A stretch of 45,933 nucleotides of DNA from Actinomycetota bacterium (GTDB lineage Bacteria > Actinomycetota > Acidimicrobiia > IMCC26256 > VFJJ01). Below are positions 38,485 through 45,933 of the stretch, piece by piece. Within the stretch, counting starts at the first letter, position 1; each line of letters starts with the position of its first letter. The position numbers were made by a program, and so were the translations under genes. Where the stretch lies: positions 1 through 45,933 of the forward strand of contig VFJJ01000035.1 of NCBI GenBank assembly GCA_009886115.1, given 5' to 3'. The notes under the pieces were generated by a model. It did not search any database and was not told where the DNA came from. It was given only the letters and a program-made list of their open reading frames with translations.

Positions 38485-38949
38485 TCACGGCGAGTCGCCT
38501 CCAACCGGGAAACCGGCAGCGATCGACGCGTCGCGGAGGTCTTCCTTCCACGTCCGGAAGCGAACATGCGCGGTCCCGCTCGGCCCCCGACCCTCGCCCC
38601 GACCGTCGGGATACAGGCGGAACGAGAATCGGAGCGTGAGGTCGTCGGATGCCACCGCGAGATATCGCGCATCCCCCCGCGACGGCGGGCCGGCCCTCCA
38701 CAGCAACCACCGCCCGATGCGGCGCTTGTAGGCCACGAGCGGCTCGGCGATGTCGGCGCCGAGCCGCACGAGCTCGTCGGGCGCCTCGATCCAGGCCGTG
38801 GCCGGGATCGTCCGGTCGCGTTGGGGGGTGTCGGGAAGTTCGCTCGTATGGACGGGCGACGGGTCGAGCGGGCGTACCTGGTCGGGACGGGGTGGCGCGG
38901 GCCGGTTCGCCCCCGGGCGTGCCGGCTGGCGCGGATCGTTGGATGTCAC
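38485..38949 (-). CDS. Hypothetical protein, 154 aa
   Basis: GTG start overlaps the menE TGA; protein-like composition (YKRRIG.WLLWRAGP, F.F.L.PDG.G.G.GP.G..H.RFRTWKE). Confidence 0.65.
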   Translation of the reverse strand: MTSNDPRQPARPGANRPAPPRPDQVRPLDPSPVHTSELPDTPQRDRTIPATAWIEAPDELVRLGADIAEPLVAYKRRIGRWLLWRAGPPSRGDARYLAVASDDLTLRFSFRLYPDGRGEGRGPSGTAHVRFRTWKEDLRDASIAAGFPVGGDSP

Positions 38950-40172
38950 GGCATCTCCCCGTCGGGCTCGGTGTGCGGCATTGGGGGAACCGGGGACGAG
39001 CCGCCCGGGCTCAGGAGCCGGCGTAGCACCTTGCCTCCACCGGTTCGAGGGATCGAGGCCACGAGCACGAGCTCGCGTGGGAGCTTGGCGACGGCCAGGC
39101 GTTCTCGTGCGTGGGCCCGCAGCCCCTCCAGGGTCGGCGGGTCGGCGGCATCGACGGGAACGACGTGGGCGACGACCCGTTCGCCCCATTCGGCGTCGGC
39201 CCGTCCGGTGACGCACACGTCCTTGACGCCGGGCGTGTCGGCCAGCACCCGTTCGACCTCGGTGGGGCTGACGTTGACGCCGCCACTCACGACGAGGTCC
39301 TTGAGGCGATCGACCACCTGGAGGCGCCCGGCTGCCGTGAGGCAACCGGCGTCTCCGGTGTGGAGCCAGCCGTCTGCGTCGAGCGCCGCTGCGGTGAGCT
39401 CGGGACGGCTTCGATACCCGCGCATGAGCATCGGCCCTCGCAGCAGGATCTCGTGGTCTAGCGCCGCGCCCTCACGCCATGGGTGGGCGGGGTCGGCCCG
39501 GTCGACCGGCGGTGGCGCCAGCGCGATCTCGACCCCCGGGAGCGGACGCCCGTCGTACACGCAGCCGCCGCAGGTCTCGGTGAGCCCGTAGGTGGTGATC
39601 AGCTCGACTCCGGCAGCTCGTGCCCGCTCGCGTAGGCCGGGGGGAACGGGGCCGCCGCCGAGCAGCACCCGGCGAGCCCGCTCGAGTGGTGCGCCGGCGT
39701 CGAGCAGCCGGATCAGCGTGGTGGGCACGAGGGAGATCAGGTTGGCCCCGGCCGCCAGGCTGGCGCTCACCGCTTCGATGCTGAAGGCGTCATGGACCTC
39801 GACGGGCACGCCCGTGTAGCGCGAGCGGGTGAGGATCGCCAACCCTGCGATGCCATGCACCGGTAGACAGCACAGCCAACGATCGGCGTCGTCGCGGCCG
39901 AGCACGCTGTCGACCGCCCGGCTGGCCGCCTCGAGCGCCGCGTGCGTGATCTCGACCCCCCGTGGTTCACCGGTCGTGCCCGACGTCGCGACGACGAGCG
40001 CGACCCCGTCGGCGACGGGGCCGTCAACGTCGAGCGCTTCGAGCTGACGCGCGACCTCGGCCTGGGGAGCACGCGGGTCGAGCAGCACCACCGCATCGCC
40101 GTTGCGCCAGCAGGCGTCGATCGCCGCGGCAGCTTGGGTCGGTGCGATCGCGAGCGGGACCAGAGACGCCAC
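38946..40172 (-). CDS. menE: o-succinylbenzoate-CoA ligase (short actinobacterial type)
   Basis: TSGTTGEP.G AMP-binding loop, W.CCLP.HGIAG, SLVPT.L, LLGG, TYGLTET.GG, TGD.G, R.KD...SGG.NV.P, GK; divergent from menA. Confidence 0.8.
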   Translation of the reverse strand: MASLVPLAIAPTQAAAAIDACWRNGDAVVLLDPRAPQAEVARQLEALDVDGPVADGVALVVATSGTTGEPRGVEITHAALEAASRAVDSVLGRDDADRWLCCLPVHGIAGLAILTRSRYTGVPVEVHDAFSIEAVSASLAAGANLISLVPTTLIRLLDAGAPLERARRVLLGGGPVPPGLRERARAAGVELITTYGLTETCGGCVYDGRPLPGVEIALAPPPVDRADPAHPWREGAALDHEILLRGPMLMRGYRSRPELTAAALDADGWLHTGDAGCLTAAGRLQVVDRLKDLVVSGGVNVSPTEVERVLADTPGVKDVCVTGRADAEWGERVVAHVVPVDAADPPTLEGLRAHARERLAVAKLPRELVLVASIPRTGGGKVLRRLLSPGGSSPVPPMPHTEPDGEMP

Positions 40173-40195
40173 GCGGCGGTACGGTACTCGGGCCG
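40173..40195. promoter_or_regulatory. Putative bidirectional promoter for menE and menA
   Basis: 23-bp gap; TACGGTA core gives TACGGT (+, 40180-40185) and TACCGT (-, 40186-40181); no RBS on either side. Confidence 0.55.
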
Positions 40196-41116
40196 ATGAC
40201 CGCCGCACCCGCCTCCGCCCCGGCTCCGACACCCACGGGACTGCGCCTGTGGATCGCGGGCGCCCGTCCCCGCACCCTCGGCGCGGCGTTCGCCCCGGTG
40301 CTCGTGGGCACCGCGGTCGCCGGCTCCGCTGACGCCGTCGTGTGGTGGCGAGCCGGGGCTGCGCTCGTGGTCGCGCTGGCGCTGCAGGTGGGTGTCAACT
40401 ATGCGAACGACTACTCCGACGGGGTCAGGGGCAGCGACGCCGAGCGCCGAGGACCGTTACGCCTCACGGCATCGGGCCTGGCCCGGCCCGGGCAGGTGAA
40501 GTTGGCCGCCGGGGCCGCGTTCGCCGTGGCGGCCGTCGTGGGGCTGGTCGTGTCGATCGCCGTCGCCTGGTGGCTCGTGGCGGTGGGAGCTGCCTGCATC
40601 GTGGCTGCGGCGCTCTACACGGGCGGGCCGCGTCCCTACGGGTATTCGGGCCTGGGCGAGCTGATGGTCCTGGTGTTCTTCGGGTTCGTGGCCACGGTCG
40701 GATCGTCGTTCGTGCACACCGAGCAGATCACCGCACTGGCGATGGGCGGAGCGACGGTCGTCGGCCTGCTGGCGTGCGCCATCCTGCTCGTGAACAACGT
40801 GCGCGACATCGAGTCCGACCGGCTGGTGGGCAAGCGCACGCTGGCGGTGACGATCGGCTCCCGTTCGGCTCGGCGCCTGTACGCGGCGACCGTCGTTGGC
40901 GCGTTCGTGGCCGTGGCCGTCATCGGGCTCTCCCGGCCGTGGGCGCTGATCGCGCTGACCGCGCTGCCGCTGGCCGTGCGCCCGGTGCGCACGGTGCTCT
41001 CTGGAGTCACCGCCGCCGAACCCGGTGGCGTGGCGCGCCTCGTGGGAGCGCTCGTTGCGACCTCGCGCCTCGAGGTCGTGGTGGGCGTGCTGCTCGCCGC
41101 CGGTCTCTGGATCTGA
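40196..41116 (+). CDS. menA: 1,4-dihydroxy-2-naphthoate polyprenyltransferase
   Basis: W..GARPRTL, QVGVNYANDYSDG..G.D, YTGGP.PYGY.GLGE, L.VNN.RD..SD...GKRTLAV. Confidence 0.95.
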   Translation: MTAAPASAPAPTPTGLRLWIAGARPRTLGAAFAPVLVGTAVAGSADAVVWWRAGAALVVALALQVGVNYANDYSDGVRGSDAERRGPLRLTASGLARPGQVKLAAGAAFAVAAVVGLVVSIAVAWWLVAVGAACIVAAALYTGGPRPYGYSGLGELMVLVFFGFVATVGSSFVHTEQITALAMGGATVVGLLACAILLVNNVRDIESDRLVGKRTLAVTIGSRSARRLYAATVVGAFVAVAVIGLSRPWALIALTALPLAVRPVRTVLSGVTAAEPGGVARLVGALVATSRLEVVVGVLLAAGLWI

Positions 41117-41252: not shown

Positions 41253-41996
41253 TCACCGTGACGGCTGATCGCTCCCGAGACGGTCGACGAATCGGCTCAG
41301 GAGCCGGGCAACGTCGTGCGGTCGTTCGAGGTGCGCGGCGTGGCCGGCGTCGGCGATGCGCACCACTTCGGTCGGGCCGCCGAGACCGGTCGCCATCCGG
41401 TGCGCGAGGTCGACGAACTTCGTGTCGAGCGCCCCGGCGGCGAGCAGCGTCCGACCGGTGAACGCGCTCAGGCGGTCCCAGAGCGGTTCCATGGACCCCG
41501 TCCCGAGGTGGCGCAGCGCGTGCGCCAGGCCCTCGACGGTGTTGCACCGGCGCTCGTCGAGCCCCGCAGCCTCGGGGGCCAGGGTGCGAAAGAGCGGCTG
41601 GGCCAGCCACCGGGCCAGAAAGGCATCGACACCGTCACGCTCGAGGTCGCGGGCCAGCAGCTCGTCGGCCCCCCGCCGGGCCTCCCGTTCGTGGGGATCG
41701 GCCAACCCGGCCGTGGCGCCGATCGTCACGAGCCCGGCAACGAGGTCGGGCCGGTCGAGCGCCACGCGGAGGCACAGGCGCGCTCCCAGCGAGTACCCCA
41801 CATAGACGGCTCGACCGCCCTGCGAAGCCAGCCACGCGGCGGTCTCCACGAAGGTGCTGCGGACGGCCGCGTGCGCGCCGTGGCCGGGCAGGTCGACGGC
41901 CACGAGCTTCATGGCGGTGGGCCCGAGTGCGGCCCGCACCGTGTCCCACGACGCCGCCGTCTGGGTGAAACCGTGCACCAGCACGACCCGGGTCAC
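41253..41996 (-). CDS. menH: 2-succinyl-6-hydroxy-2,4-cyclohexadiene-1-carboxylate synthase-like alpha/beta hydrolase
   Basis: VHGFTQT, DLPGHG, GYSLGAR, R..R...D..LA, F...W..QPLF, G.LD.KF, GHAAH.E.P; adjacent to menA and menE. Confidence 0.8.
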   Translation of the reverse strand: MTRVVLVHGFTQTAASWDTVRAALGPTAMKLVAVDLPGHGAHAAVRSTFVETAAWLASQGGRAVYVGYSLGARLCLRVALDRPDLVAGLVTIGATAGLADPHEREARRGADELLARDLERDGVDAFLARWLAQPLFRTLAPEAAGLDERRCNTVEGLAHALRHLGTGSMEPLWDRLSAFTGRTLLAAGALDTKFVDLAHRMATGLGGPTEVVRIADAGHAAHLERPHDVARLLSRFVDRLGSDQPSR

Positions 41997-42039
41997 GTCG
42001 CGACCACCCCGTCGTCCGTGCGCCGTGACCTCGCCCCGG

Positions 42040-42819
42040 TCATCGGCCCTTCCACACCGGCGTGCGCTTCTCGGCGAAGGCCCGCGCACCCTCGAGTGCA
42101 TCCTCAGAGCGGTTGGCGACGACCGTGAGCTCCCGATTGCGGGCCCAGGCCTGCTCCTCGGTGAGCCAGACGGCATCGACCATGAGCTGCTTGGTGATCG
42201 CCACCGCGAGGGGCGCGTTGGCTGCGATCTCCCGGGCCAGCGCGAGCGCGACAGGGACGACCTCGGCCGCCGGGACGACACGATTCACCAGACCGAGCGC
42301 GTGGGCTCGCTCGGCGCCGATCGAACCCCCGGTGAGGCCGAGCTCGAGCGCCACGGCCAACGGGATCCGGCGGGGGAGCCTGATCACCCCGCCGGCGCCG
42401 GCAACGAGGCCCCGCTTCACCTCGGGGATCCCGAACGACGCGTGCTCGGCGGCGATCACGAGATCGCAGGCCAGCATGATCTCGAGGCCTCCGGCGAAGG
42501 CGGCGCCGTTCACCGCGGCGATGATGGGCTTGGGGTGATGCCGGCCGGTGATGCCTGCGAAGCCGTTGACGGTGAACACGCCCCGGGCGCCGTTGGTCAC
42601 GAACTCCTTGAGGTCCATGCCCGAGCAGAAGGCGCGCTCGCCAGCGCCGGTGATGACGACGGCGCGGACGGTCTCGTCGGTCTCGGCCTCGTCGAGGGCG
42701 GCCTCGAGCCCGCGGGTCACGGCCGTGTTGATGGCGTTGCGGGCGTCGGGCCGGTTGATGGTGACGACGATCACGCCGTCGTGGCGCTCCTGCACGGTCT
42801 CGCCGGACGGATCGGTCAT
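42040..42819 (-). CDS. Enoyl-CoA hydratase/crotonase family protein
   Basis: INRP..RNA, FCSGMDL, KPIIAAVNG...GG.E, PEVKRGL, EGARAF.EKR.P.W. Confidence 0.92.
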   Translation of the reverse strand: MTDPSGETVQERHDGVIVVTINRPDARNAINTAVTRGLEAALDEAETDETVRAVVITGAGERAFCSGMDLKEFVTNGARGVFTVNGFAGITGRHHPKPIIAAVNGAAFAGGLEIMLACDLVIAAEHASFGIPEVKRGLVAGAGGVIRLPRRIPLAVALELGLTGGSIGAERAHALGLVNRVVPAAEVVPVALALAREIAANAPLAVAITKQLMVDAVWLTEEQAWARNRELTVVANRSEDALEGARAFAEKRTPVWKGR

Positions 42820-42855
42820 GGATCGACGCTCCCTTGCTCGTTTGCTCCCGAAATT

Positions 42856-42896
42856 TGTGCAGAAATCGTCGCCAGGCGACGATTTCTGCACACAGA
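42856..42896. repeat. REP-like palindrome, copy 2
   Basis: 41 bp identical to positions 15-55, in the divergent gap between the crotonase and the L,D-transpeptidase. Confidence 0.9.
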
Positions 42897-42932
42897 TCGG
42901 CGGGTCTGTCACTCCTGATAGCTTTGGGGCCC

Positions 42933-44252
42933 ATGTTGCGAAAGAGGACTGGGTTGATCGCGCTCAGGCGTCGGGCTGCAGGGATCGTCATGATCGCCGC
43001 CCTGGGACTGGCAGGCACGTTCGGGGCGGGCCGGCTCGATCCCCGCCTCGGTTCCACGACGGCATCGGCCGAGGACGGTTCCGACCGGCTCGTCGCGTTC
43101 GGCGACGCCCGCGACCTCGGGTCCCCCGAGGGCTTCGCTGCGTTGGGGCGCTTCGTCGCCGTCGAGTCCACGCCTTCGGGACGCGGGTACTGGATGGCCG
43201 ACGCTGCCGGTGGCGTGTATGCGTACGGCGATGCGGCGTTCCTCGGCTCGGTGGCCGACCGTCCGCTCACCCGTCCGATCACCGACCTCGTTGCGACGGC
43301 CACGGGTGACGGGTACTGGCTGCTCGCCGAGGACGGTGGGATCTTCGCGTTCGGCGACGCCGACTTCCACGGAGCGATGGTCGGCACACGGCTGAACCGC
43401 CCCATGGTGGCCCTGGCGCCGACGCCCTTGGGCAACGGGTACTGGATGGTCGGCGACGACGGTGGCGTGTTCGCCTTCGGCGACGCCGAGTTCCGTGGTG
43501 CAACCGGGGCCCAGCTGGGCGCAGCACCGATCGTGGGGATCTCGTCGTCGCTGTCGGGCCGGGGCTACTGGATCGTCGCTGCCGACGGTGCCGTGTACGC
43601 GTACGGCGACGCCGAGTATGTCGGTGGCCTCGGCGGCCCTGGCATGCACCAGCCCATCGTCGACTTCGCCGTCACCGACACCGGTCGCGGGTACTGGCTC
43701 GTCACCCGTGAGGGAGGTGTGTTCGGCTTCGGCGACGCCCGCGAGGTTGGCTCCATCGTCGGTTCGGGCGACACCAGGGCCGTCGCCATCGCGGGTACCC
43801 CGAGCGATCGCGGCTACCTGGTCGCCGTGGTGCCGCCGGGCTTCGAACCGGCGCCGAGCATCCCGATCGACTCGGGAGCCGGGCGGCGCATCGTGTACTC
43901 GAACTCCCAGCAACGGGTCTGGCTCGTCGAGGACGACGGTCGGCTCTACGACAGCTGGCTCGTCTCGGGCAAGCAGGGAGTTCCATTGCCCGGGAGCTAC
44001 ACGGTGTTCTCCAAGTCCGAGCTCTCGTGGTCTGGAAGCCTGAAGCTGCCGTACATGACCCGCTTCGCCCACGGACGCACCAAGGCCATCGGGTTCCACG
44101 GGATTCCGTCACGCGGCGACGGGTCGCTCGTGCAGACGGTCGAGGAGCTGGGCCAGTTCCGAAGCGCCGGGTGCGTGCGACAGGAGCTCGAGCAGGCGAA
44201 GAGGCTGTACGAGTGGACCCCGGTCGGAACCCCTGTGATCGTCCTGGCGTGA
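42933..44252 (+). CDS. Secreted L,D-transpeptidase (YkuD) with N-terminal GYW/DGG/FGDA repeats
   Basis: Signal peptide; five full and two half repeats G.GYW....DGG.F.FGDA; C-terminal Q.VW, VSG, PG.Y.V..K, IGFHG...SAGCVR; TAGCTT 8 nt before ATG. Confidence 0.88.
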   Translation: MLRKRTGLIALRRRAAGIVMIAALGLAGTFGAGRLDPRLGSTTASAEDGSDRLVAFGDARDLGSPEGFAALGRFVAVESTPSGRGYWMADAAGGVYAYGDAAFLGSVADRPLTRPITDLVATATGDGYWLLAEDGGIFAFGDADFHGAMVGTRLNRPMVALAPTPLGNGYWMVGDDGGVFAFGDAEFRGATGAQLGAAPIVGISSSLSGRGYWIVAADGAVYAYGDAEYVGGLGGPGMHQPIVDFAVTDTGRGYWLVTREGGVFGFGDAREVGSIVGSGDTRAVAIAGTPSDRGYLVAVVPPGFEPAPSIPIDSGAGRRIVYSNSQQRVWLVEDDGRLYDSWLVSGKQGVPLPGSYTVFSKSELSWSGSLKLPYMTRFAHGRTKAIGFHGIPSRGDGSLVQTVEELGQFRSAGCVRQELEQAKRLYEWTPVGTPVIVLA

Positions 44253-44262
44253 CCCCCGCGGT

Positions 44263-44310
44263 TCTTCGCGCAGAATTGTTCGTCTGGTGAGCCTTTCTGC
44301 ACGCAGAACG
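44263..44310. repeat. Degenerate REP-like palindrome, copy 3
   Basis: Ungapped 35/48 match to positions 11-58, counted by hand. Confidence 0.65.
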
Positions 44311-44757
44311 AGACGGGTCGCCAGGAGGGTCGTGGTGCTCGGGGTCGCAGGCTTCTCGCTCCTCACGATCGTCCGCGGCTACGACGACCCCCATCGGGTG
44401 TTCGCGTTCCACATGTTCAACGAGTCGAGCGTGTGGGAGGCCGACATCGTGCGCGTCACCGTCGACGGCGGCCGCGTTCCGATCGACGAGCCCTGGCCGG
44501 GGGGCTACCGCTGGGCGACGCTGGTCCCCGAGCGGGGCCTGGCCTACCCGCAGTTCCGCCACCACGCCGACGCCGGGGTCGACTCCACGTTGGCGTACCT
44601 CGACGCAGCACTCGACTGGGTGGCAGCCAACACGCCGGCCGATCCCGAGACCCGCTACCTCGAGGCGATCGTCACCTACGACCGCAACACCCACGGCGAC
44701 CGGATCGTGGTGTTGCGCAGCATCGACAGGGCGGCCGGGGACGCCGAGGCCTTGTGA
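44287..44757 (+). CDS. Small membrane-anchored or exported hypothetical protein coupled to the HTTM gene
   Basis: Basic N-terminus, one hydrophobic helix, HRVFAFHMF motif; its stop overlaps the next start (GTGA); start uncertain. Confidence 0.65.
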   Translation: MSLSARRTRRVARRVVVLGVAGFSLLTIVRGYDDPHRVFAFHMFNESSVWEADIVRVTVDGGRVPIDEPWPGGYRWATLVPERGLAYPQFRHHADAGVDSTLAYLDAALDWVAANTPADPETRYLEAIVTYDRNTHGDRIVVLRSIDRAAGDAEAL

Positions 44758-45908
44758 GGACATGGCTCCGATCGGCTGACGCGGTGCTCGACGCCGAGGG
44801 CAGCGTGCGCGCGGTGGCGCTGCTCCGTATCGCCGCCGGGCCCCTGCTGTGGTTGCACCTCGAACGCTTCGTGCGCCTGATGGATGCCGACCTCTACTAC
44901 GGCGACCGCTTCCACGAGGCCTATTGGTCGTGGTACCCGGAGGTGGGCAAGACCACCTACTTCTGGCTCCTTCGCCTGGCGGTGCTCGCCGCGGTGTTGG
45001 TGAGCCTGGGCCTGTTCAGCCGGCTCGCAACGGTGTACGCGGCCGGATTCGTGGCCTGGAACCTCTGGCTGTCGACCACGCACTACCACAACAACCGGGC
45101 CTTCTTGCTGATGATCCTCGTGGGGCTCGCCGTGTTGCCTTCGGGACGGGTCCTCTCGCTCGACGCGCTCATTGCCCGCAGAAGGCAGCGGCCACGGGTC
45201 GATCGCGTGCCCTTGTGGCCCTTGTGGTTGCTGCGTTTCGAGCTGGCGTCGGTCTACGGTGCCTCGGGCGTGAGCAAGCTGCTCGACGGTGACTGGTGGG
45301 CCGGGACCGTCACCTGGAACCGGGTCATCAGATCCGGGCCGGAGCTCGCCCGGACCCCGCTGCCCGACTGGTTCATCGACGCCATCGGCAACCGTGGCTT
45401 CCATTCGGTCTTCGCCAAGGTGGTGATCGTCACCGAGGTGTTCATCGCCCTTGGGCTGTGGCTCCGGTCCTCGCGAGCTTTCACGATCTGGATCGCCGTG
45501 TGGTTCCACGTGTTCATCGAGATCTCGGCGCATGTGCAGGTCTTCAGCCTGGCCGGCATCTGTGCCCTGGTGATCTGGGCGACGCCGTCGACTGGTGGCC
45601 GCTCGCTCGTGCTGACCGGCGACGGGCGGGACACACGCGCCTTGGCCTTCGCAGTGCGCCGCCTCGACTGGTTGGCCCGCATCGAGCTCGTGCAGGAGCC
45701 ACGGGACGCGCTGGCCGGGCGCGCCGATGCGGTCGTCCTGACCGAGGTCGACGGGCGCCGGTTCACCGGCTCGGCTGCCGCGTGGCAGACGCTGCGGTAC
45801 CTCCCGGCGACGTTCATGGTGGCGCTGCCGATCTCGTGGGTGCTCGGGCGTCGAGGCCGTGTGGCACACGCCACGTTGACAGTGAGCCCATCTCGACGTA
45901 CAAAGTGA
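44754..45908 (+). CDS. HTTM-domain (vitamin K-dependent carboxylase-like) membrane protein with a degenerate DCC1-like C-terminal domain
   Basis: LLRI..G, LG.F.R, YHNN, SLDA, W...LLR......Y..SG.SKL..DW..G, E, FH; tail VRRLDWL.R...DGR.FTG..A....R.LP. Confidence 0.78.
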   Translation: MRTWLRSADAVLDAEGSVRAVALLRIAAGPLLWLHLERFVRLMDADLYYGDRFHEAYWSWYPEVGKTTYFWLLRLAVLAAVLVSLGLFSRLATVYAAGFVAWNLWLSTTHYHNNRAFLLMILVGLAVLPSGRVLSLDALIARRRQRPRVDRVPLWPLWLLRFELASVYGASGVSKLLDGDWWAGTVTWNRVIRSGPELARTPLPDWFIDAIGNRGFHSVFAKVVIVTEVFIALGLWLRSSRAFTIWIAVWFHVFIEISAHVQVFSLAGICALVIWATPSTGGRSLVLTGDGRDTRALAFAVRRLDWLARIELVQEPRDALAGRADAVVLTEVDGRRFTGSAAAWQTLRYLPATFMVALPISWVLGRRGRVAHATLTVSPSRRTK

Positions 45909-45933
45909 ACGGCGTTCACTGAACGTCGTTCAC
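45876..45933 (+). promoter_or_regulatory. Sigma70-type promoter with two tandem palindromic operators, for a gene beyond the window
   Basis: TTGACA (45876)-17 nt-TACAAA (45899), then GTGAACG-G-CGTTCAC (45905-45919) and TGAACG-T-CGTTCA (45920-45932). Confidence 0.65.

Follow-up and report, generated by a model that had tools for sequence, protein, structure and literature searches.

Does a soil bacterium divide between two proteins what in animals is the catalytic core of the vitamin K-dependent carboxylase? This question is raised by two neighbouring genes of an Actinomycetota bacterium (contig VFJJ01000035.1), which encode a small membrane-anchored protein and an HTTM protein. The window we have analysed is the complete contig (45,933 bases, G+C ~70%); the pair is located at its right end, with both genes on the forward strand. 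These soil actinobacterial genes look like the catalytic core of gamma-glutamyl carboxylase (GGCX), divided between two polypeptides. Overall, we put the reading of the pair as a split GGCX-like quinol-dependent enzyme at slightly better than an even chance, and within this reading carboxylation as the outcome has a less than even chance.

The gene pair

The two genes and their junction are as follows.

44287..44757, forward strand: small-subunit gene from the list of open reading frames (ORFs); 156 residues, 829 homologues, AF2 model with pLDDT 91
44754..45908, forward strand: HTTM-subunit gene; 384 residues, comprising a GGCX-like membrane core (PF05090) and a thioredoxin-like tail
44754..44757, forward strand: GTGA overlap of the HTTM start and the stop of the small gene, read directly from the sequence (ccttGTGAgg)

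The HTTM reading frame is open already from 44433, and its best-fitting start is the GTG at 44754. We have chosen this start because it overlaps the TGA of the small gene by 4 nucleotides and because the resulting 384-residue product is that of public cluster P0121 (100% identity and coverage). The overlap suggests translational coupling of the two genes. For the small protein, the public gene call (P0001) has 140 residues and begins at Val17; the longer start is preferred since homologues align across the Arg-rich stretch in front of it. The contig stops 25 nucleotides past the HTTM stop codon, and neither promoter-like nor terminator-like sites have been found in 42500-45933.

The original prediction, made from this DNA alone, had described a coupled pair of a small anchored protein and an HTTM protein, and both ORFs have been found as described. 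The motifs it had quoted are present at the positions given below: GVSKLLDGDW lies where it had placed it, YHNN is part of HYHNNR, HRVFAFHMF is in the small protein and includes FAFHMF, and FH occurs as F216/H217 and F251/H252.

The HTTM subunit has the fold and active-site residues of GGCX

The HTTM protein matches Pfam HTTM (PF05090) over residues 20-278 with 68.3 bits against a cut-off of 27.7, and the same model is matched by 36/36 members of its family. We have used a profile of these 36 members (A2) and a wider profile (A8), which covers four HTTM subtypes of the same class with 17 proteins. When searched against the PDB, A2 retrieves human GGCX at E 7e-6, and A8 retrieves it at E 5.5e-58 in a single alignment over GGCX 48-490. 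Profiles are needed for this, as a single-sequence phmmer search of the HTTM protein against the PDB returned no GGCX.

The same relation is seen at the structural level. In the Foldseek search with the AF2 model (pLDDT 80), the top 15 matches are all GGCX, with E from 9e-7 to 9e-4 (best match: E 8.8e-7, TMq 0.56). VIA superposes model residues 1-311 on human GGCX 41-321 (Z 18.0, root-mean-square deviation 3.7 A, 264 residues). All 16 GGCX entries among the matches listed rank first, with Z of 11.5-18.0, and the next unrelated chain is NACHO/TMEM35A at Z 9.7.

The active site of GGCX is described in the accessible part of a structural study (PMC12647623). There, Lys218 is the base deprotonating the hydroquinone; it stacks on Trp223, its amine bonds the carbonyl of Met401, and Asp263 is located beside it. 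The vitamin K ring is sandwiched between Met401 above and Phe286 as the floor, Phe299 stacks CO2, and Asn159, His160 and Tyr395 hold the Glu carboxylate. That part of the study also states that bacterial GGCX orthologues retain the residues for CO2 and for vitamin K hydroquinone (KH2). The corresponding sites in the HTTM protein of the window are the following.

45081..45098, forward strand: HYHNNR (H110-R115), overlying GGCX W157-N-N-H160; H112, N114 and R115 are invariant in 36/36 sequences
45267..45296, forward strand: GVSKLLDGDW, invariant in A2 and aligned to GGCX by the A2 and A8 profiles; it contains Lys175 (45276-45278)
45435..45437, forward strand: Glu228, in the column of GGCX Asp263 and invariant in A2
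45504..45509, forward strand: Phe251-His252, equivalent to GGCX Phe286-His287; H252 is invariant in A8
45543..45545, forward strand: Phe264, equivalent to GGCX Phe299 and invariant in A8

Both PDB profile alignments, A2 and A8, place Lys175 on GGCX Lys218 and Trp181 on Trp223, so the resemblance of GVSKLLDGDW to the catalytic lysine motif, which the original prediction had noticed, has been recovered by two profile searches. The GGCX set Lys218/Trp223/Asp263 is kept as K175/W181/E228 in all 36 A2 sequences, as are N114 and R115; in the Glu228 column, the fused HTTM relatives described below carry Asp. Furthermore, K175, H252 and F264 are invariant across the 17 proteins of the four subtypes. 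The residues of the ring sandwich and of CO2 stacking are also kept, as F251 and F264 in this protein and as Met43 of the small subunit, which is aligned to Met401. For HYHNNR, the A2 and A8 alignments differ in register by one residue, and GGCX His160 accordingly falls on Arg115 or Asn114.

The small subunit appears to match the capping part of GGCX

The small protein has an Arg-rich N-terminus and one predicted transmembrane (TM) helix (residues 3-32, N-in), after which its AF2 model shows an alpha/beta domain of ~120 residues. This domain is placed outside the cell because the N-terminus is positive-inside. No Pfam or NCBIfam family is matched by the protein. Two of its elements are of importance here, where A1 denotes the profile and alignment of its family.

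44293..44382, forward strand: TM helix (residues 3-32) of the AF2 model; residues 10-32 are in the predicted interface
44401..44418, forward strand: FAFHMF loop (F39-F44); the A1 consensus is FGFQMF, with F44 invariant and F39 near-invariant

According to what stands upstream, the HTTM genes of the class fall into four situations: an A1 partner, a short partner with Cys, a DUF5819-like partner, or a fused partner. The short partners (family A7) are anchored proteins of ~105 residues that have an RFGWQMF motif as well as two conserved Cys and are encoded upstream of HTTM genes whose products often carry CxxC in their tails. DUF5819-like partners carry NWxLFAP. The fused proteins continue past the HTTM domain with a TM helix, then an RF(A/S)WxVM motif and finally a domain of ~120 residues; this C-terminal module has been aligned as A9.

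These families have been compared with hhalign. A1 is linked to A7 (prob 96.6%, E 5.9e-10, 58 columns) and A7 to A9 (prob 95.2%, E 2.6e-8, 64 columns), while A1 compared directly with A9 gives prob 52% and E 1.5e-4; this alignment has 123 columns and is collinear along almost the whole of both. A9 in turn retrieves human GGCX 362-504 from the PDB at E 7.6e-15. In the combined A1-A9-GGCX alignment, F39-A-F41-H-M43-F44 stands on GGCX Y397-S-W399-D-M401-(M402)-V403, and in GGCX this stretch, Y397-V403, is the loop LL9 lying over the vitamin K ring. DUF5819 alignments are suitable as negative controls since they too start with a TM helix; they stay at prob 0.9% against A1 and 0.3% against A9, so a TM helix alone does not yield such scores.

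Judged from this chain of profiles, which is partly weak, the small subunit would correspond to GGCX ~362-504, that is, to the helix and the loop capping the vitamin K ring. The faint likeness of FAFHMF to the motif that opens the lumenal part of GGCX, pointed out in the original prediction, is real by the same chain (A1-A7-A9-GGCX 362-504). Direct searches with A1 found no GGCX in the PDB and no fused HTTM protein by hmmsearch, both at E<=10; hmmsearch with A7 found the fused proteins at 3/13 loci (E 3e-4 to 2.4e-3, in a small set). The best structural matches of the small-protein model are kinesins in Foldseek (E 0.03) and proteasome subunits in VIA (Z 5.4-5.5), and these model-based searches appear neither to favour nor to exclude a fold relation to GGCX.

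Some details of the sister families have been recorded. A7 loci are L019-L021, L091, L096 and L099 (for example, the partner at L096:1154-1474 with an HTTM-DCC1 gene at L096:1330-2559), and both Cys of the pattern, one in HLC and one at the C-terminus, are invariant. Among the HTTM genes behind A7, some DCC1 tails keep CxxC, one has CxxS, one is Cys-free and two genes are tailless. The fused proteins (L072-L083, for example L073:1420-2823) have 420-550 residues, occur in 13 class genomes and carry the partner module in cis; upstream of several of their genes lies a gene for a protein of 350-480 residues ending in ...GFSD(S/A)DGD(T/G)G.

The two proteins are predicted to bind

The predicted complex of the small and HTTM proteins has an ipSAE of 0.66 (runs: 0.68, 0.65, 0.66), and all three controls stay at 0.00. 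Among solved complexes 116/157 reach the mark applied to such predictions, and among mismatched pairs 2/215. The runs share at least 97% of contacts, and the pLDDT of the partner is at least 81. In the predicted complex, TM residues 10-32 of the partner lie on HTTM 155-175, and its loop 36-47 touches HTTM 107-117 and 169-181, including Lys175, Asp178, Asp180 and Trp181. This prediction supports binding of the two proteins with the cap loop against Lys175. The pass may partly reflect likeness to GGCX itself, which has been solved as a single chain holding both parts.

The C-terminal tail and the possibility of a redox factor

After the membrane core, the HTTM protein continues into a further domain.

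45588..45827, forward strand: thioredoxin-fold DCC1-like domain (residues 279-358), from the model, VIA and hhalign

In the AF2 model the domain folds as beta-alpha-beta-beta-beta-alpha, and VIA matches it to the N-domains of glutathione S-transferases and of glutaredoxin 2 (Z 4.7-6.2). Pfam DCC1-like (PF04134) has no match in the tail. When ten tails were aligned by hhalign with fifteen DCC1 domains from this class, the result was E 3.6e-5 and prob 71% over 46 collinear columns, in the C-terminal half. At the CxxC position the tail has G291-R-D-T294 (45624-45635), that is, GxxT: sister HTTM tails read LVWDDGCDSCRAW, and the tail of the window reads LVLTGDGRDTRAL at the same place. No conserved Cys is present in either protein of the subfamily, as judged from the A1, A2 and tail alignments. 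The tail appears to be a DCC1-type domain which has lost its CxxC redox cysteines, and its role is probably structural. One related HTTM gene of a pair (L031:6716-8028) ends ~22 residues past the HTTM domain and is without the tail, either naturally or through a frameshift.

These features bear on another explanation, in which the pair would be a quinone-linked membrane factor of the DoxX/MauE/LMF1 kind with a redox or maturation role; its HTTM fold would hold a quinone or chaperone secreted proteins without oxygenation or carboxylation of the GGCX type. The apparent derivation of the tail from DCC1-type thiol-disulfide oxidoreductases speaks for it, and so do the sister modules, whose tails retain CxxC and whose short partners retain two Cys. 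Among family members there are weak Pfam matches to MauE (23/36) and DoxX (7/36); these, the position of NACHO/TMEM35A as the structural runner-up to GGCX, and the absence of VKOR from 13/14 carrier genomes point in the same direction. However, the lack of any conserved Cys in either protein excludes thiol chemistry for this subfamily, and the GGCX residues for quinol deprotonation and CO2 stacking, which a mere scaffold does not need, are invariant. We regard this explanation as unlikely, though not negligible.

Conservation and genomic context of the pair

The small protein has its 829 homologues at E<=1e-3, none of which carries a Pfam domain, and its family, clustered at 50% identity, comprises 126 representatives. 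For the HTTM protein there are 876 homologues, equal in length. Homologues are found by the hundreds in soil Actinomycetota, with look-alike unnamed clusters in Myxococcota; a search of the ESM Atlas gave unnamed clusters only. Among the sampled genomes, the A1 profile is found in 2/401 of the phylum and in 16/401 of the class (13 strong matches, own genome included, and 3 weak ones), and HTTM genes are present in 63/401 of the class. A search of 18 longer hits for fusions of the small partner with HTTM found a partial HTTM domain in P0315 alone, which is probably a chimeric call.

As related loci we have taken the surroundings, up to 20 kb, of the 13 strong A1 matches that lie outside the window. 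In all 14 loci (window and 13 relatives), the small gene immediately precedes an HTTM gene of this subfamily and is read from the same strand, so the pairing exceeds chance. One genome (G236) has a second copy of the small-partner gene at C10:550845-551201 (L004-L006), which looks like a decayed copy, as profile positions 31-64, 53-106 and 113-150 are found in three different reading frames.

No third gene is conserved along with the pair, and the Pfam content of the 117 neighbour ORFs differs between loci. In an all-vs-all comparison of ORFs of at least 30 residues within 3 kb of the pair, the only neighbours recurring in at least 3 of the 14 loci are luciferase-like monooxygenases, in 4 loci of which two belong to one genus, and acyl-CoA dehydrogenases, in 3.

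This neighbourhood is relevant to the idea of a peptide-maturation pair, of the SdpA/SdpB kind or of the linaridin kind (HTTM-domain LinG/CrdG), which would process or export a ribosomal toxin or the precursor of a ribosomally synthesised and post-translationally modified peptide. HTTM proteins belong to SdpAB, and the two-gene layout of an anchored protein and an HTTM protein is identical to that of Bacillus subtilis SdpA/SdpB, as the original prediction had remarked. The parallel holds for the layout but not for the families: the SdpB model TIGR04033 gives 16.4 bits against a cut-off of 178.4, and there is no SdpA match, so membership in SdpA/SdpB has been rejected. No sdpC-like gene is near the pair, as no small ORF recurs among the 14 loci; apart from the monooxygenases and dehydrogenases, no ORF in the comparison recurs at all at that frequency, and the 117 neighbour ORFs show no common peptide-cluster genes. 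HTTM-domain proteins are nevertheless present in linaridin clusters, according to the accessible part of a preprint (bioRxiv 10.1101/2022.05.11.491181). A peptide-maturation role is quite unlikely in our estimation.

The menaquinone genes nearby

Genes of the men type lie 2-5 kb upstream of the pair in the window.

38946-40232, reverse strand: menE-like gene, 265 bits, below the curated cut-off of 345
39962-41116, forward strand: menA, 336 bits against a cut-off of 264
41253-42281: menH-like gene, 174 bits, below the curated cut-off of 208.55

The presence of menH, menA and menE at this distance had been part of the original prediction. Their location is as stated there; menA is above its cut-off, whereas the menH-like and menE-like genes are below theirs. 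As listed, the longest ORFs of the menE-like gene and menA overlap by ~270 nucleotides (38946-41116), and the true menA start is probably farther downstream, as the family match begins at residue 94.

From this neighbourhood, one may suppose that the pair is an accessory of menaquinone biosynthesis or modification which acts on the quinone itself, and the HTTM pocket is indeed a naphthoquinone pocket in GGCX. However, when linkage to men genes was examined across genomes, it was not conserved: a menA or menH homologue is within 10 kb of the pair in 0/13 related loci. menA is above the cut-off in 13/13 related genomes, but away from the pair: in 6 of them the two share a contig and are at least 246 kb apart, and in the other 7 they are on separate contigs. 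Besides, the pair occurs in only 13/401 sampled class genomes, and in the window an L,D-transpeptidase gene and an opposite-strand crotonase gene separate it from menH. The accessory role thus fails the linkage test and is very improbable. The proximity is a coincidence and the men genes do not belong to the system, as the caution in the original prediction had foreseen.

As to the separating genes, the crotonase gene (42040-42912, reverse strand) encodes an enoyl-CoA hydratase of the PRK08252 type (313 bits against a cut-off of 282), not the naphthoate synthase MenB; a crotonase homologue is ~2 kb from the pair in one genome of the same order (L027:6891-8045). The YkuD-type L,D-transpeptidase gene (42834-44252, forward strand, E 1.3e-14) ends 35 nucleotides upstream of the pair, and the N-terminal two thirds of its product consist of ~7 repeats of the type GRGYW..A.DGGVF.FGDA.F.G. 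In none of the 13 related loci was a YkuD homologue found at 10 kb or less from the pair.

Relation to known systems

Compared with human GGCX, the pair shares the membrane fold (Z 18.0) and the equivalents of Lys218, Trp223, Asp263 (Glu here), Phe286/His287 and Phe299, and its small subunit is linked by profiles to the TM helix and LL9 region 362-504. It differs in being composed of two polypeptides, with the C-terminal module encoded first, and in having a Cys-less thioredoxin-like tail. It is without equivalents of His160 and Tyr395 and has no counterpart past GGCX ~504, where the profile link ends and the propeptide clamp of GGCX lies. VKOR is absent from most carriers of the pair.

A GGCX-like complex of bacteria, made of an anchored small protein and an HTTM-DCC1 protein, has already been suggested in print: the accessible part of a preprint of August 2026 (bioRxiv 10.64898/2026.08.19.745780) proposes it via AlphaFold 3 for a pair of DUF5819 and HTTM-DCC1-like proteins, with Melghirimyces thermohalophilus as an example and MloH as a fused form of such a complex. 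As far as described there, that pair resembles ours in the adjacent anchored small protein and the HTTM protein with a C-terminal domain of the DCC1 type, in ours an apparent one, in the predicted GGCX-like complex with an aromatic/aliphatic pair of the partner at the quinone pocket, and in the conserved Lys, Trp and Phe. The genes of our pair are likewise adjacent and co-oriented, in 14/14 loci, and their products are predicted to bind.

The two kinds of pair also differ. The small subunit of the window is not detectably a DUF5819 protein: PF19136 matches nothing in the own genome and 0/33 A1-family members at E<=1. DUF5819 was tried as the family of the small subunit and rejected, as hhalign of A1 or A7 against DUF5819 alignments gives prob 0.9%, 3.8% and 8.6%; the best local alignments set FxMF on NWxLFAP, although they are not significant. 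In addition, the tail of the window has no CxxC and no PF04134 match, and the GGCX link of the window pair rests on sequence profiles, beyond predicted structure. Strong DUF5819 genes (215-239 bits) occur in 8/8 genomes of one genus with genomes of 7-10 Mb (L035-L042), and the membrane genes downstream of them have the motif WYKIQGSRW and are too divergent for A2 at E<=10.

MloH of malonomycin biosynthesis reportedly is a member of a biosynthetic cluster and has a known substrate. To our knowledge, MloH alone has a known reaction among bacterial relatives of the vitamin K-dependent carboxylase. MloH and the fused HTTM proteins of the class have the HTTM core, the TM helix, RF(A/S)W.VM and a domain of ~120 residues, corresponding to the module that forms the small subunit on its own in the window. 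They are single polypeptides, whereas the window pair is split, and no cluster surrounds it.

Our literature search found no paper on the A1 partner family, which has no name to search by. The partner family outside Pfam models, not detectably DUF5819, appears to be new, and so does the derivation of the partners from GGCX 362-504 via fused bacterial intermediates, as far as profile comparison can tell. The cysteine-free form of the module is new.

Proposed mechanism and the evidence that weighs on it

If the pair is a split GGCX-like enzyme, the HTTM subunit would represent GGCX ~41-326 and hold the pocket for quinol deprotonation and CO2, formed by Lys175, Trp181, Glu228, Phe251/His252 and Phe264. 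The TM helix of the small subunit would pack on the Lys175-bearing helix, its FAFHMF loop would shut the quinone pocket from the outer side, as LL9 with Met401 does in GGCX, and its extracytoplasmic domain would occupy the place of the first part of the GGCX lumenal domain. The complex may bind menaquinol and O2, menaquinol being chosen because no other quinone is expected from these bacteria. Lys175 would then start the GGCX-type oxygenation that leads to a strong base, and this base would act on an acidic extracytoplasmic substrate whose gene lies elsewhere in the genome; the modification would most likely be a carboxylation. The substrate is presumably not a protein with a propeptide and a gamma-carboxyglutamate (Gla) domain, because the substrate-recognition part differs from GGCX. 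Of the split, menaquinol-dependent modifying enzyme which the original prediction had envisaged, the split GGCX-like core has been recovered in fold, residues and predicted complex; menaquinol dependence and modifying activity we infer.

Several observations weigh against this reading. On the side of the small subunit, the direct A1-A9 link is only 52% probable, the TM helix contributes part of each profile score, Met43 is replaced by Pro in ~1/3 of A1 members, and GGCX is unlisted in the Foldseek and VIA searches with the small-protein model. On the side of the substrate, the Glu-binding set of GGCX is not all kept: an Asn is kept, His160 is represented by Arg115 or Asn114, and the Tyr395 column is not conserved in A1. 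No substrate gene linked to the pair has been found among the neighbour ORFs of the 14 loci. We know of no two-part bacterial HTTM enzyme with a measured activity, and the GGCX orthologue of Leptospira is said to epoxidise without carboxylating. Moreover, VKOR recycles vitamin K epoxide in animals, and it (PF07884) is present in only 1/14 carrier genomes (completeness 92-99%), so a GGCX-like turnover would need other epoxide handling. Taken together, the rarity of VKOR, the changed Glu-binding residues, the missing propeptide clamp and the missing linked substrate count against a full GGCX cycle.

Going further, the Cys-free split modules might be true menaquinone-dependent carboxylases, which add malonate-type (Gla-like) groups to secreted or envelope molecules and, being without VKOR, handle the quinone epoxide by another route. 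We give this stronger proposal, both parts taken jointly, a low probability.

Implications

Based on the above analyses, two partner families outside the coverage of Pfam (A1 and A7) have been defined, and the men gene neighbourhood has been removed as a tempting false lead. The pair is small and Cys-free, and its cap is a separate protein of 156 residues, which makes it a handy object for testing quinol deprotonation, epoxidation and CO2 capture; it also allows the function of the cap loop to be studied. If the carboxylase reading is true, Gla-type modification would be widespread in bacteria, and it could be studied in a minimal two-subunit enzyme of 540 residues.

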